IMG/VR virus record: IMGVR_UViG_2565956718_000004
Length of the DNA: 49,168 nt
Source of the DNA: a virus
Lineage: Duplodnaviria; Heunggongvirae; Uroviricota; Caudoviricetes
Reading direction: 5' to 3' (one strand)
In this document: positions 17,651 to 44,797 of the stretch, in pieces
Layout: each line of letters begins with the position of its first letter
Numbering within the stretch: position 1 is the first letter of the stretch
The notes under the pieces: generated by a model
Seen by the model: only the letters and a program-made list of their open reading frames with translations
The model's database searches: none
Told to the model about the DNA's origin: nothing
Made by a program: the position numbers and the translations under genes

Positions 17651-19312
17651 TTATATGAAAAAAACCGCATATTCTTTCTTTTTCGGTTCCGGGTTAAGGG
17701 ACATCAGGGAGACCGCATTGAACAGCGCCATCAGCGGGTCAATTTTTCCCCGTCCACTGGCCTGTTTGGTGATAAGAATGGCGTTACCTTTAGGCTCCAC
17801 CCGGGCATTGCCGACACACCAGGCCATCAGGGGCTGGTCACCATGCACCAGCACCCCTTCAGCCAGTTTGCGCTCGGTGGTTTTAATGGCCCCGCCCAGT
17901 TTCCAGCCCTGGCTTATCCCCACCACAATTCCGTCGGGGATCCCGGCTTCCGCCAGTGAATCCAGAATCTGCCCCACCCCTGACGGGTCAATACCGATAT
18001 GGTCCAGTAACTCAGCCTCATGAATGCGACGCACATATTCCGCCACTTCCGCCGTGTCATCCCCGACACGCCGGACAATGGTCATATCTCCACAGGCAAC
18101 AAGATCCTGAAACCGGGACGCCTCGCTCTTCCGTCGGACCACCGCGGTTTCATGCGCCCAGGCATGGCCCCAGCCCAGCCATTCGCGGGTCTCCCGGTCA
18201 CGCCCAATCACATACATCCCCAGCAGATCATCCAGCCCTCCGCCGTCAATCCCCACCGTCACCACATCAGCACGACGCAGGATATCGTCCAGGCTGATAC
18301 AACGGCCCTGCTCTTCCCAGAAATCAGCCCCCGCCCAGCGGTCAGAGCGCAGGGCAAGACCAATTTCCACATTGGCGTGTTTTGACATGAACCCCCGGAA
18401 TGTCTCTTCACCGGCTTCCCGGGCTTTACGGTACTCCCGGTACAGAAAGGCCTCATCCACTGAATAGCCGAGATTAGGATTGACCATGGCGAGGTTTTCC
18501 ATCAGCAGGTGAGCCCCGCTTTCCACCATTTCAGGAGGGTGTTCAAATATCACCGGCAGAAAGTGCGGATCATGAATTTTGCCGTCGCGCACATCCCGGG
18601 CGTACTGCAGTTTCTGTCTGAACACCCCGGCGGGCGGTTCATTCGACTGGGTGGTCGTATACACCACAAACCCTTCCGGGCGGGAGGCAAGGCCGCCTAT
18701 GGCTTCACGTAACATGTCCTCCGCCTTGCACTGCTTGCCAAACAGCCACAACTCATCAATCAGCGTACCCACGGACTTGATACCGGACACCGTATTCGGA
18801 TCGGCTGCCACCACCTTCAGGGTGGTGTCTGTCACCCGGTGGGTGATGGTCCGGATATGGGTCTGTACCTGGCAGAGATCATCCAGATCATCGTCACGTC
18901 GTACCATATCCCGGGCAGGGTTGAAGGCGTTGGCCGCCACCTCCACAGTCGGGGCCAGAATCGTGTAACCCGCCGCCTGCCGCCAGTTCAGTAACAGTGC
19001 AGTCATCATGATCCCCGCGGCCAGCGTGGACTTCGAGTTTTTCTTGGGGATAAGGATAAAAACTTCCTTGATATGGCGTACACCGGTCTGCGCATCGTAG
19101 GAGCCAAACAGGGCCGCCACCAGGTCAAACACCCACGGTGCACAGGACTCCCCGAACGTAGGGCTACCAGGTGCATCCACAATCCGCAGTTGTTTAAAAA
19201 TCGCCAGGGCATGTGCGGCCTCGTCCGGATAAATCGGATCCGGAATAATCGACAGCCCCTTTTTCAGGCGCTCTGCCCAGTCCGGGCAGGCTGTGCTCCA
19301 TACAGGTATCAT
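17651..19312 (-). CDS. terminase large subunit
   Basis: 553-aa ORF with ATPase and nuclease-like halves; position after terS. Confidence 0.9.
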   Translation of the reverse strand: MIPVWSTACPDWAERLKKGLSIIPDPIYPDEAAHALAIFKQLRIVDAPGSPTFGESCAPWVFDLVAALFGSYDAQTGVRHIKEVFILIPKKNSKSTLAAGIMMTALLLNWRQAAGYTILAPTVEVAANAFNPARDMVRRDDDLDDLCQVQTHIRTITHRVTDTTLKVVAADPNTVSGIKSVGTLIDELWLFGKQCKAEDMLREAIGGLASRPEGFVVYTTTQSNEPPAGVFRQKLQYARDVRDGKIHDPHFLPVIFEHPPEMVESGAHLLMENLAMVNPNLGYSVDEAFLYREYRKAREAGEETFRGFMSKHANVEIGLALRSDRWAGADFWEEQGRCISLDDILRRADVVTVGIDGGGLDDLLGMYVIGRDRETREWLGWGHAWAHETAVVRRKSEASRFQDLVACGDMTIVRRVGDDTAEVAEYVRRIHEAELLDHIGIDPSGVGQILDSLAEAGIPDGIVVGISQGWKLGGAIKTTERKLAEGVLVHGDQPLMAWCVGNARVEPKGNAILITKQASGRGKIDPLMALFNAVSLMSLNPEPKKKEYAVFFI

Positions 19313-19872
19313 CCGTTGCCCTCATTATCGTTATTCACCACCAGTCGGGGTGGCGGTGGCACCGCAAAACGGTTAGCCGCTTTTTTCGCGGCATCACCTT
19401 TTGCCGATTTTTTCCCGGTATCCCCTTTTTTATGGTGCGTGAACTGCGCCAGACGCCAGGCCGCATCCAGTGCCAGTTTCGGATCAATGCAGAGGTTTTC
19501 CACCAGGATCCGCCCCATGGCTTTCACCGGATCGGGAAGACCATCCTCCATATATTCAATACCAGGAGACATCACCGCGGACGGTGGCATCTCCGGATTG
19601 TTTTCGTCCGGCTGTGGTATTGCAGCCGCCTCACGGCGACGGGGTTTATCCTCCTGCTCTGATTTTTTCTGCCGGTAAACAGGAACCTCATCCACCTCCA
19701 CCGTCTCGCATTGTTTACGGGCTATAAACGCAAGCACCTCCGGATCTTTTGCCAGCTGCGAGCCTTTAACCCTGGCGGTCTTCGCCGAATAACCGGCGGC
19801 AATGGCTGACGCTGTTTTGTTTTTCCCGGACATGAGCGCCAGCGCAAATTTTCGTTTTTGCGTTGTCAGCAC
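19309..19872 (-). CDS. terminase small subunit
   Basis: 187-aa ORF with N-terminal HTH-like segment, overlapping the terL start; alternative (GTG) start. Confidence 0.75.
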   Translation of the reverse strand: MLTTQKRKFALALMSGKNKTASAIAAGYSAKTARVKGSQLAKDPEVLAFIARKQCETVEVDEVPVYRQKKSEQEDKPRRREAAAIPQPDENNPEMPPSAVMSPGIEYMEDGLPDPVKAMGRILVENLCIDPKLALDAAWRLAQFTHHKKGDTGKKSAKGDAAKKAANRFAVPPPPRLVVNNDNEGNG

Positions 19873-19919
19873 AGCCTCCTCCCGGGTCCAGAACGCACTC
19901 AGCCGGGTATGGTTCAGCC

Positions 19920-20080
19920 CATTTTTCCCGGCGTCTCATGCCGCAAATGTTAACTGCTGCCTGGTTAACATTTGCTGAAAAAGCCTGTTAACATTTTTTC
20001 CGCACAACAAACTGAATAATAAAGATAAAAACCGCAAAAATGCCCGGGCAGCCAGTTAACATGTTAACTGCCCTGAAACG
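19920..20080. other. putative cos / terminase recognition region with clustered GTTAAC palindromes
   Basis: Five GTTAAC cores within 150 bp, including the perfect 18-bp palindrome CAGTTAACATGTTAACTG; lies between the HNH and terS genes. Confidence 0.45.
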
Positions 20081-20161
20081 GGAATTTTTTCTCTGCGTGA
20101 GAGGGGGCGCGGTGTCCAAAGCGATCGTTTTTTACGCCGGATGATACCCCCCCGGGTTGGG

Positions 20162-20527
20162 TTACAGTCCGATGATGTCGTCCTCTCTGCCACTACCTCC
20201 GGACACCTCCGGCAGCGTCGGGTCCGGCATACCACTCGCCGCTTCACGAGCAGACTTTTGTCGATGGCATTCGGCACAGAGCGTCCAAAGATTCGTCTCC
20301 TCATTACCACCACCGAACTGAAGTGCAATTCGGTGATCGAGTTCACTGTCACAGAGGTCAACCACACGACCACAGATACAGCACTGCCCGGCGTCCCTCA
20401 GCCAGATATGACGCTTGAGGGAAACACGTGCACTGCCACTGACACGACGCTGCTCCCCCTTCAGAATATTCACCCGTCGGGTATTCAGTGTTTTGATTCT
20501 GCTCTGGAGTGTACGAAGCTCAGCCAT
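20162..20527 (-). CDS. HNH endonuclease
   Basis: 121-aa ORF with CxxC...H..H...CxxCH zinc-finger/HNH motifs, adjacent to the terminase genes. Confidence 0.85.
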   Translation of the reverse strand: MAELRTLQSRIKTLNTRRVNILKGEQRRVSGSARVSLKRHIWLRDAGQCCICGRVVDLCDSELDHRIALQFGGGNEETNLWTLCAECHRQKSAREAASGMPDPTLPEVSGGSGREDDIIGL

Positions 20528-26395: not shown

Positions 26396-26615
26396 CAATA
26401 TAAACAGCCCCTCCGGAGAGGGGCTGGAGAGTGGCGCTATGTGCCATTGCATGGTGCCGGGTGCCTCCCGGTGAATTCAGTACCAGCACCTGAATCCGCG
26501 ATTATCCCATATACCTACTCGCTGATTACCCCTCCGCACAGGGGGATTCACCATGCGAAATTTTTTAACAAACTTCCCGCCGGCCAGACAATAATCGCCA
26601 GCCTGAATTATGAGC
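26396..26615. repeat. structured repeat unit, copy 1 (candidate ncRNA element)
   Basis: Starts with hairpin AGCCCCTC-CGGA-GAGGGGCT; shares conserved blocks with copy 2 while paired stems flank unrelated loops. Confidence 0.6.
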
Positions 26616-26868
26616 AACGTGGCATTTTACGGGAAAACTGTTTTCTGCAGTAAAAAGGCCCGCCGGAGCGAGCCTGGAAGGATAGCGGTCATGTGATGCC
26701 GGTTTCCCGGTAACTCAGCATCGGTATCTGAGTCAACGTTTTCTCTACTGGGTCATTTCCGATACGTTCCGCCTTCCGGCAGACTTTCATCACGTCAGAA
26801 AATATAGCACCCTGAGTAACAGGACAGTACTCAGAATTCAGGAAACTGTGACACATCCTGCACAGAAA

Positions 26869-27083
26869 AGCCCCTCCGGAGAGGGGCTGAAGTATAGCCT
26901 AATTTCTGTCTGTCGCATGGTGCCAGGGGCCTCCCGGTAAATTCAGCCTGTCTACTGAATTTGCATGTTCTCTGGATCATACACTTTGCCAGATGCCCCG
27001 CCGCTGAGGGGGATTCACCATGCGATGTAATTTTTAACAAATTCTCCGGCAGCCAGACAATCATCAAGCTGTGGAATTGTGAG
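26869..27083. repeat. structured repeat unit, copy 2 (candidate ncRNA element)
   Basis: Same block structure as copy 1; on the minus strand the 5' hairpin is followed by TTTTCTGTG, i.e. terminator-like. Confidence 0.6.
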
Positions 27084-27316: not shown

Positions 27317-27393
27317 TGGACCGCCATCGGGGACTTGAACCCCGCGCAGCCAGCTTCGAAGGCTGGCGCTCTATCCCGATGAGCTAATGGCGG
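27317..27393 (-). tRNA. tRNA-Arg (anticodon UCG)
   Basis: 77-nt cloverleaf ending CCA: acceptor CCGCCAT/ATGGCGG, D-arm GCTC..GAGC, anticodon stem CCAGC/GCTGG with loop CTTCGAA, T-arm CGGGG-TTCAAGT-CCCCG. Confidence 0.8.
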
Positions 27394-27400
27394 TATGTGA

Positions 27401-27476
27401 TGGTGGCCCTTGCTGGATTTGAACCAGCGACCTGGCGATTATGAGTCGCTCGCTCTCACCACTGAGCTAAAGGGCC
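27401..27476 (-). tRNA. tRNA-Ile2 (anticodon CAU, lysidine type; ileX/ileZ-like)
   Basis: 76-nt sequence GGCCCTTTAGCTCAGTGGTGAGAGCGAGCGACTCATAATCGCCAGGTCGCTGGTTCAAATCCAGCAAGGGCCACCA, close to E. coli ileX. Confidence 0.85.
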
Positions 27477-31851: not shown

Positions 31852-32007
31852 TTACTCCTCAGGTTCGTAAGCTGTGAAGACAGCGACCTCCGTCTGGCCG
31901 GTTCGGATTCGTACCTCGCAGAGGTCTTTCCTCGTTACCAGTGCCGTCACTATGACGGTTAAACAGATGACGATCAGGGCGATTAACATCGCCTTTTGCT
32001 GCTTCAT
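31852..32007 (-). CDS. hok: Hok/Gef family type I toxin
   Basis: 51-aa MKQQKAMLIALIVICLTVIVTALVTRKDLCEVRIRTGQTEVAVFTAYEPEE, the classic Hok sequence pattern. Confidence 0.85.
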   Translation of the reverse strand: MKQQKAMLIALIVICLTVIVTALVTRKDLCEVRIRTGQTEVAVFTAYEPEE

Positions 32008-32160
32008 AGCCTGCTTCTCCTTGACCTTTCGGTCCGTAAGAGGCTAATCTCTATGTGTCGCATAGATATGGCCTCAGATTAATGTTAAGCGTCTTGCAGG
32101 ACGCGTAATGTTAACTGGGGCTTTTCTCTATCTGCCTTTTGGTGTTCATGCCTGAGACAG
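32008..32160. other. hok mRNA leader / expected mok-sok regulatory region
   Basis: Structured region immediately upstream of hok where hok/sok loci carry the overlapping mok frame and antisense Sok RNA; exact sok ends not resolved. Confidence 0.4.
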
Positions 32161-32265
32161 ATAGCCTCAAGCACCCGCAGTCATTCTACTTAACTAAGAT
32201 TTCCCCGCAAACCGTTTTTGTCCGGCACAGTAAATATCCAACTAAACCAATGGCGTTCGCTGTAT

Positions 32266-43366: not shown

Positions 43367-44239
43367 TTCACCCTCCTGAGGGTTGGTGATTAAGGAGTTC
43401 TCCACGGGTGAGGTGGAGTGCGTGCGCCGGACACGGGTGAGCATCCGGCACTGACAGTTTACTGAAAGGATATTTCCCTGAAAAGTCAGACCATAACGCG
43501 AAAGCGCTCGGTGAGGTAGCTGGTTCATAGATAGCCTGTCGTTAAATTTTCGTCGACCGTGCGCTTCCGGTTGTGGCAATCCGCGAAATGGCGCGGCGGT
43601 AAGTATGGCGGGGTTATTCCTTCCCCCGTTGAGGACACCGGGTTGTCAGGTTGACCATACGCTTAAGTGACAACTCCGCTGCAACGCCCTCTGTTATCAA
43701 TTTTCTGGTGACTTTTGGCGGTATCAGTTCTACTCCGTGACTGCTCTGCCGCCCTTTTTAAAGTGAATTTTGTGATGCGGTGAATGCGGCTCAGCGCACG
43801 CGGAACAGTTAAAACAAGCGGTCTTTTACGGGCGTAACGGGAATGCTCTGTATCCGACGTTAATTGTTAACTGGTTAACGTCACCTGGAGGCACCAGGCA
43901 CCGCATCAACAAAGTTCACTTCGGTGATGAAAGGTAGAGAAAATGTTGAATGTAGCTATTGAAAACCAGAACGGGTGGAATTATAGTGCACCTGCACCTC
44001 ATAAAACGGGTGCCGGGCGTGGAAACCCGAAATCATTCACGGCGCATAACCGCGCTCAGGCGGTTTTTTTATGCGTTAAGCACAGCCACATTCGCATTAT
44101 GGTGGGGCGTGCAGGGCAGCCGCAAGGCTGGCCGGGTTCCGTGATGACCGGTATTTCCACCCCTGTACGTCTCACCACCCTTATGGTCGTGGAAAACCTC
44201 GGTGGTGAGTTAATCAAATTCATCGCGGAGGCTGCCATC

Positions 44240-44797
44240 ATGGCTACTATCCTTACCCTTTCTCACCCTGACGTAACCATCGAAAATGGTCGCGCTGTCA
44301 CTACGTCTGTTGCGATCGCCGAGTTCTTTGGCAAACGCCACGAACGAGTGTTGGATAAAATTCGCAATCTGGACTGTTCAGCAAAATTCACTGAGCACAA
44401 TTTTGTGTCAAGCGAATACACCGACTCAACCGGGCGCAAACTCCCAATGTACCAAATCACCAAAAACGGCTTCGTTTTCCTGGTGATGGGCTTCACTGGC
44501 AAAAAAGCCGCTGCATTTAAAGAGGCATACATTGCTGAGTTCGACCGCATGGAAGCAGAACTGCGCCAGAATAACGCCCCGTCTCCCGACAAAATGATTC
44601 ACGGGGACGGACGCACCCTGGTTATCCGTCTCGACGAACACGGCAATATCAAATTCACTGAAACCGTTCCTGACGACGCAATGGTCTGCACCCTGGATAC
44701 CTTCCGGTTTTATCTGGAGAAACAAGGATGGACTCTTGTAAACCGGAGCGCAATTAAAAATATGACTGTGGAGCAATTGCTAAAAATTCATTGTTGA
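44240..44797 (+). CDS. Rha-family phage regulatory protein
   Basis: Start at MATILTLSHPDV with RBS GGAGG; N-terminal Rha-domain pattern (RAVTTSVAIAEFFGKRHERVLDKIRNL ... MYQITKNGFVFLVMGFTG). Confidence 0.7.
   Translation: MATILTLSHPDVTIENGRAVTTSVAIAEFFGKRHERVLDKIRNLDCSAKFTEHNFVSSEYTDSTGRKLPMYQITKNGFVFLVMGFTGKKAAAFKEAYIAEFDRMEAELRQNNAPSPDKMIHGDGRTLVIRLDEHGNIKFTETVPDDAMVCTLDTFRFYLEKQGWTLVNRSAIKNMTVEQLLKIHC

Follow-up and report, generated by a model that had tools for sequence, protein, structure and literature searches.

What is the function of the GTTAAC repeats that are packed between the HNH endonuclease gene and the small terminase gene (terS) of a lambdoid, Stx-phage-like E. coli prophage? 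We analysed this locus within a DNA stretch of 49,168 nucleotides, referred to here as the window. The original prediction held that the cluster is the cos or terminase-binding region, and that copies scattered elsewhere in the prophage may be bound by the same protein or serve as sites of methylation. The late genes are located on the minus strand, and Pfam matches place the HNH gene directly upstream of terS-terL on that strand with cos in between, which is the HK97-style order. The neighbourhood is composed as follows:

22859-22326, minus strand: lysozyme gene, followed by a spanin gene and a DUF3950 gene (plus strand) before the HNH gene
20162-20527, minus strand: HNH endonuclease gene, the last gene before the putative cos (Pfam HNH PF01844, E 2.7e-7)
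19873-20161: HNH-terS gap of 289 bp, containing the GTTAAC cluster
19309-19872, minus strand: terS, small terminase (Pfam Terminase_2, residues 2-57)
19705-19872, minus strand: predicted helix-turn-helix (HTH) DNA-binding domain of TerS, residues 1-56
17651-19312, minus strand: terL, large terminase (Pfam TerL_ATPase and TerL_nuclease)
17587-15650, minus strand: protease-capsid fusion gene, after terL

The HNH gene carries the annotation HNH endonuclease in BP-4795 and related phages as well.

As originally noticed, five GTTAAC cores are found near terS (at 19949, 19964, 19987, 20055 and 20063), spanning 120 bp from 19949 to 20068, and the palindrome at about 20060 is perfect over 18 bp. The cores are part of the following elements, where distances are counted from the predicted cut described below:

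20053-20070, unstranded: palindrome CAGTTAACATGTTAACTG, consisting of two outward-facing ATGTTAAC half-sites, +32 to +49
19998-20045, minus strand: T-tract-rich spacer TTTTTGCGGTTTTTATCTTTATTATTCAGTTTG..., followed by an A-run, as read from the sequence
19984-19997, minus strand: single site AAAATGTTAACAGG, with its core at 19987-19992 (+110 to +115)
19943-19975, unstranded: inverted pair GCAAATGTTAAC-N9-GTTAACATTTGC, with cores at 19949 and 19964 and 12-nt arms that are 100% complementary, +127 to +159

When oriented by their asymmetric flank, A(A/C)ATGTTAAC, three of the five sites point in one direction and two in the opposite one, and together they extend from +32 to +159. A T-rich stretch comparable to that at 19998-20045 was found in all relatives with a long spacer, and this spacer is possibly intrinsically bent. 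The whole window harbours 18 GTTAAC hexamers (8.35 +/- 2.9 expected); outside the cluster there are 13 where about 8 are expected, so that enrichment there is not clear. The extended motif WTGTTAACTG is indeed far more frequent than chance, with five copies in the window (0.18 expected), three of them in the cluster and the others at 32108-32117 and 43864-43873. Likewise, there are two copies of the dyad GTTAAC-NN-GTTAAC, one at 20055 and one at 43866, where 0.06 are expected. The copy at 43866 is statistically unusual and is explained separately by an RNA hairpin (see below). None of the five hexamers varies in 60 unique sequences from close relatives, an observation of little power because the stretch from about 20090 to terS varies poorly throughout. 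An Rfam search of the HNH-terS gap gave no credible match, and a terminator and promoter scan of the region revealed no terminator and a lone promoter-like match that consists of the repeats themselves.

To locate the genome ends, we made use of related phage records that end in this gap. Nearly all of these are prophage-derived and uninformative; the sole useful one is that of phage Lys8385Vzw (MT225100), which was sequenced from induced particles and has a TerS that is 95% identical and a gap that is about 97% identical to those of the window. Its record starts with CTCACGCAGAGAAAAAATTCCC... (first bases CTCACGCAGAG) and ends with ...GGACACCGCCCCCCCT (last bases CGCCCCCCCT), so that the two ends meet where ...CGCCCCCCCT adjoins CTCACGC. 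PhageTerm assigned Lys8385Vzw to the cos phages, with cohesive ends of the 3′ type and CGCCCCCCCT as its cos (PMC7946995). At the homologous place the minus strand of the window reads ...GGACACCGCGCCCCCT followed by CTCACGCAGAG..., from which we derived two features:

20102-20111, minus strand: predicted 10-nt 3′ cohesive end CGCGCCCCCT, by homology to the ends of Lys8385Vzw, from whose 10-mer it differs by one base
20079-20153, minus strand: cosN-like cos core, from the G7 run through GGACACCGCGCCCCCT and, across the cut, CTCACGCAGAGAAAAAATTCCCG

By homology, the left genome end of the prophage would start at 20101 (CTCACGC...), and terS begins at +230, leaving 229 bp between the predicted cut and the gene. 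The HNH-terS gap is therefore very probably the cos region. The original prediction of a cos or terminase-binding region thus stands for the region as a whole, and the cluster is its best candidate for TerS recognition. The cluster is not the cut site, since the cohesive end lies at 20111-20102 and the palindrome begins 32 bp further inward on the terS side. By analogy of layout, the cluster occupies the position of lambda cosB. Two irregularities in the published data on Lys8385Vzw may be mentioned here. The deposited 'terminase' CDS (MT225100.1, locus L002, 185-793) starts within the repeats, 45 nt upstream of the start used by its relatives (230), and the cos coordinates given in PMC7946995 (50,977-50,953) are impossible.

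More distant relatives were retrieved with an alignment of TerS homologues as query; scanning the genome contigs with the TerS protein alone returned no match. The cos core is kept in more than 20 enterobacterial relatives, among them prophages of Atlantibacter, Kluyvera, Enterobacter, Serratia, Erwinia, Pantoea and Morganella, as well as in satellite-like islands, whereas the repeats differ. TerS of these enterobacterial relatives is only 33-49% identical. In a set of 18 prophages with a short spacer (from Atlantibacter, Kluyvera, Phytobacter, Kosakonia, Enterobacter, Serratia, Rouxiella, Erwinia, Pantoea, Buttiauxella and Citrobacter, among others; TerS 33-49% identical overall), the stretch from a G7-8 run through GGACACCGCGCCCCCT and CTCACGCACAGAAAAAATTCCC on either side of the cut is nearly unchanged, and terS starts just 38-39 bp past the cut. 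In these prophages a dyad GT(A/T)AAC-NN-GTTAAC is found at the same offset as the palindrome of the window, and the dyad occupies this offset in all relatives. In most of the relatives the dyad overlaps the start codon of terS (...GTAAAC ATG TTA ACA G..., that is ATG TTA ACn). The GTTAAC, which covers codons 2-3 of the short-spacer terS genes, is maintained by TTA: codon 2 is TTA in 17 out of 17 leucine cases, compared to a single one among the 113 leucine codons in the remainder of these genes (about 1%), and synonymous sites vary freely in codons 4, 5, 7, 8, 9 and 10. The single exception, GTG TTT AC, changes leucine to phenylalanine and still retains a GTTTAC hexamer. The codon argument is weakened by the fact that AU-rich codons after the start codon can be selected for translation.

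In the window, terS is shifted 190 bp downstream and starts with GTG CTG ACA, using the common leucine codon. Since terS has been displaced while the dyad is found at the same offset, the palindrome is the homologue of the ancestral terS start, retained as a DNA motif. Among the sequences compared, the 190-bp spacer with its three extra sites is peculiar to the E. coli lineage. Parts of this spacer resemble the 5′ end of terS (ATGTTAACnGGCAG), which makes an origin by duplication probable. Most distant relatives have a similar HTH and a single dyad only, which indicates that the three extra sites are not essential to the family. In two further lineages, seen in Pantoea (L020) and Morganella (L022), the terS start is also displaced (ATG CTG ACA) and clusters of their own, made of GTTAAC, GTTAAT or GTAAAC repeats, are located upstream of terS; in Morganella some of these repeats are found beyond the cut, towards HNH.

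TerS was also examined at the level of the fold. In the AlphaFold model, the N-terminal domain has a pLDDT of 92-96 and helices at residues 4-14, 19-25, 33-41 and 44-56. A sequence search of the PDB with TerS gave only marginal hits to the SF6/SPP1 DNA-binding domain (E 0.2-0.8), which the fold search confirmed: the best match of the N-terminal domain is the DNA-binding domain of SF6 G1P (4zc3; TM 0.85, rmsd 1.6 A, 30% identity), followed by 2cmp, PaP3 TerS (6w7t) and NV1 TerS. According to the helix bounds of the model, residues 32, 35 and 38 would lie at the N-cap and in the first two turns of the recognition helix 33-41.

The TerS alleles of E. coli fall into two N-terminal types, A and B:

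Type A: residues 31-38 KTARVKGS (T32, V35), in the window, P0010, P0038 and P0009; five to six GTTAAC between the cut and terS
Type B: residues 31-38 KSARCKGS (S32, C35), in P0023, P0033, P0005 and P0018; no GTTAAC

Type-B loci have the same architecture as type A, and every homologous site is GTTTAY/RTAAAC (TATAAACATGTTTATA, AAATGTTTATACC and AAATGTTTAC-N9-GTAAACATTT, the last at the position of the inverted pair); the homologue of the single site at 19984-19997 is AAAATGTTTATACC. In P0033, the contig of which begins inside the spacer, the last three sites alone are visible. As a prediction test of this rule, we fetched P0005, P0018 and P0009, and all three were as predicted. P0005 and P0018, with a type-B HTH in an otherwise type-A-like protein, both have GTTTAY, and P0009, with other residues than the window at 19, 25 and 30 but with T32/V35 retained, has GTTAAC. 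Moreover, all 42 unique combinations of spacer and HTH in IMG/VR have T32/V35 together with exactly five GTTAAC; a scan of IMG/VR with a type-B TerS as query returned type-A relatives only. A third group (P0055, P0064 and P0113) is marked by NPTE in helix 2 together with W or C at residue 38, and harbours one to six AAAAGTTACAC repeats (GTTACAC) beside the same conserved core. In this comparison of alleles, motif type is shown to co-vary with the recognition-helix residues 32/35 of TerS. As the array adjoins the DNA encoding the HTH, linkage contributes to this co-segregation. The same base change at all five sites is, on the other hand, not explained by linkage.

Mosaic loci indicate which segments travel together. 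In the type-B locus L182, the final 150 nt of HNH, terS outside the HTH-coding part and the beginning of terL match type-A loci at 95-97% identity. Identity drops to 66-68% across the spacer and to 83-85% over the 168 nt encoding the HTH; these two segments of L182 group with other type-B loci. L181 shows the same mosaic pattern for terS and terL. The motif does not track HNH, TerL or the C-terminal part of TerS, and the mosaic of L182 shows that the swapped unit is the repeat array together with the TerS HTH. When L182/L183 and L181 are set beside the window and L175, they appear as recombinants in which a cassette from about +30 past the cut to about TerS residue 56 is essentially the sole difference.

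The satellite-like islands (L180, L172-L174, L178-L179 and L184-L185) are small and bear an integrase. L180 (E. coli GCA_012987925.1, 3446-11944) encodes an integrase and an AAA_25 primase-like protein and contains the same cut-site core and its own TerS homologue with AAAAGTTACAC repeats, which in the satellites are direct repeats. A 307-aa protein of this island has 23% identity (E 7e-19) to the capsid part of the protease-capsid fusion of the window, and gene calling in the fetched locus revealed neither a TerL nor an HNH gene. The satellite spacer has no near match in the complete E. coli genomes. The islands appear to be cos satellites equipped with a TerS of their own and with a capsid homologue resembling Ccm. 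In a limited literature search, we did not find a description of a cos satellite with the cut-site core of its helper but its own TerS and repeats.

The scattered copies, which had been proposed to bind the same protein, turned out to be stems of RNA elements. The copy at 32108-32117 is located inside an Rfam match to sok (RF01794, 106.7 bits, 32005-32176, minus strand) in hok/sok, where it makes up one side of a stem. The second copy, at 43864-43879 (GTTAACTGGTTAAC), is flanked by DicF (43703-43754) and isrK/C4 (43994-44182), and its CGUUAA...UUAACG is the hairpin stem of an STnc100-like match at 43766-43913 on the plus strand (35.6 bits, E 1.5e-6, sub-threshold given a gathering score of 47). 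Phage P7, Shigella phage 75/02 Stx and phage Evi all share the 50-nt segment around this copy, with its core GTTAATTGTTAACTGGTTAACGTCACCTGGAGGCACCAGGCACCGCA, without any change. P7 (Punavirus) and 75/02 Stx (Diegovirus) belong to genera other than that of the window phage, and both presumably package their DNA with unrelated machinery. The sok and STnc100-like stems and this invariance in phages of other genera led us to reject the two copies as extra terminase sites; they are unrelated to the terminase. The surroundings of the second copy form an immI-like block (43703-44797), comprising DicF (43703-43754), isrK (43994-44070) and the C4 antisense RNA (44095-44182). As RNA matches fall inside the mechanical open reading frame 43943-44797 (Ash and Rha domains), the real start of the Ash/Rha protein may be further downstream. 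Two full-length STnc100 copies (26396-26584 and 26860-27053, minus strand) are found beside tRNA genes (27320-27393 and 27404-27476).

Taken together, we propose that the GTTAAC sites are candidate recognition sites that are probably read by TerS, an assignment drawn from sequence comparison, and this proposal has to be weighed against four alternatives. The repeats could act at the RNA level, with the palindrome and the inverted repeat folding into hairpins of the late transcript that would affect processing, stability or translation of terS. Minus-strand RNA of 19935-20080 folds better than shuffled sequences (z = -2.05), as does that of the satellite spacer (z = -2.8), and the arms stay complementary through the allele changes. 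However, all copies within a genome share one motif, which goes beyond pairwise complementarity, the number of sites is odd, satellites have direct repeats and the dyad of the distant relatives (GTAAACATGTTAAC) makes a poor hairpin; together with the lack of an Rfam match and of a terminator-like site in the gap, this leaves a function in the transcript unlikely. Alternatively, the sites might be bound by another protein, be it a host nucleoid protein (IHF, Fis or H-NS), a phage regulator, HNH or TerL. Sites of nucleoid proteins typically have an A/T-rich context like this one, and lambda cosB needs IHF. In the cos region, however, the IHF consensus WATCARNNNNTTR has no match, and the motif differs among alleles within one host species, which a host factor does not require; both points make a host factor unlikely. 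With regard to the phage proteins, motif type in the mosaics is independent of HNH and TerL, and islands without a called HNH or TerL still have their own repeats beside their own TerS, so that we regard a binder other than TerS as improbable.

A further alternative is that the repeats have no function and are mere scars, left when the 5′ end of terS (ATG TTA ACn GGN CAG, encoding Met-Leu-Thr-Gly-Gln) was duplicated repeatedly. In favour of it are the homology of the palindrome with the ancestral terS start and the resemblance of the other sites to ATGTTAACAGGGCAG beyond the core. Scars would decay independently, whereas here all five copies changed alike between alleles and the copies are invariant in the 60 unique close relatives and the 42 unique spacers. 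We therefore find a lack of function quite improbable, and an origin by duplication is in any case compatible with a present function. Finally, GTTAAC is a classical palindromic restriction site, and the sites could be targets of restriction or methylation of the HpaI type; methylation had been part of the original prediction for the scattered copies. This reading can hardly be correct: GTTAAC is not clearly enriched outside the cluster, and the homologous sites in relatives of the same host species are non-palindromic (GTTTAT/GTTTAY and GTTACAC), variants that argue against a restriction or methylation site.

Recognition of the array by TerS would fit a two-module cos in an HNH-dependent, HK97-style cos-packaging prophage, with a core and an array read by the TerS HTH, and we consider this organization likely. 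The first module, the conserved core at 20153-20079, would hold the cleavage and yield the 10-nt 3′ overhang 20111-20102; TerL and HNH presumably act on this core, given that it is unchanged between TerS alleles. The second module, the five-site array on the side that is packaged first, would be recognised by the N-terminal HTH of TerS. Several HTH domains of a TerS oligomer may bind the sites, the A/T-rich spacer may aid wrapping or bending of the DNA, and bound TerS would position TerL and HNH on the core, like lambda gpNu1 at cosB. The location of the ends is shown by homology to Lys8385Vzw, and we infer binding, bending and the order of assembly.

More tentatively, the signal might be modular on a larger scale. 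An invariant core would be common to phages and satellites, and an exchangeable cassette of repeat array and TerS HTH, with at least three specificities (GTTAAC, GTTTAY and GTTACAC), would set who is packaged. If true, co-resident prophages could discriminate their own genomes, and an undescribed type of cos satellite would use the same TerL, HNH and capsids and divert packaging to itself. Of 5426 complete E. coli genomes, 1277 carry the type-A cos gap (window 19873-20161), which is found at 2999 places, as many as seven in one genome, and is never annotated; the type-B spacer is present in 11 complete E. coli genomes. The cos region is present in most Stx1 and many Stx2 phage records. Knowing the cut site as distinct from the recognition code would help to orient and annotate these prophages, to predict cross-packaging of co-resident prophages and satellites and hence mobilisation of toxin genes, and to design cosmid-like or transducing vectors. 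Furthermore, the T32/V35 and S32/C35 alleles, with a one-base change per site, amount to a natural experiment on the way in which small terminases with an HTH read DNA.

In a limited literature search, we found no paper describing GTTAAC repeats together with a small terminase, and the cf-PICI paper contains no description of them. Among known packaging systems, HK97 shares with the window the HNH gene (gp74 in HK97) immediately before cos, a 10-nt 3′ overhang (predicted in the window), the order terS then terL, and an A-tract soon after the cut (+12 to +17 in the window, +24 to +29 in HK97). HK97 is the only HNH-cos phage that has been studied in depth, and its mechanism counts against our reading of the array: its TerS (gp1) uses a single 15-bp site at +15 to +29, with the DNA threaded through the ring (PMC11331095). 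The TerS of the window, in contrast, is SF6/SPP1-like, matching Terminase_2 and SF6 G1P and not gp1, and has five candidate repeats at +32 to +159, whereas HK97 TerS has no comparable HTH match. Recognition of several sites by HTH domains on a ring has been described for the pac boxes of SPP1/SF6 G1P and for PaP3 TerS (PMC7672466). SPP1 and SF6 are headful (pac) packagers, while the window phage has, by homology, defined cohesive ends and an HNH partner. SaPI TerS-S and the capsid homologue Ccm of the cos SaPIs resemble the islands described here, with their own TerS, their own repeats and a distant helper-type capsid homologue; those systems are staphylococcal.

In layout, the region resembles that of lambda. 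In lambda, cosB (R3-I1-R2-R1) is also located between the nick site and the small-terminase gene and also consists of several motif copies in both orientations with a bendable A/T-rich segment in between; in the window, at least three candidate copies in both orientations lie between the nick site and terS. The distance from cut to terS is similar as well, about 190 bp in lambda and 229 bp in the window. Lambda differs in having 12-nt 5′ overhangs and no HNH partner, and the repeats of the window include a T-tract-rich spacer only and no IHF consensus. Lambda gpNu1 binds cosB with a winged HTH, and the window TerS likewise has a predicted N-terminal HTH, but as a Pfam Terminase_2 protein with an SF6-like fold it differs from gpNu1. 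The likeness between the two systems is one of layout.
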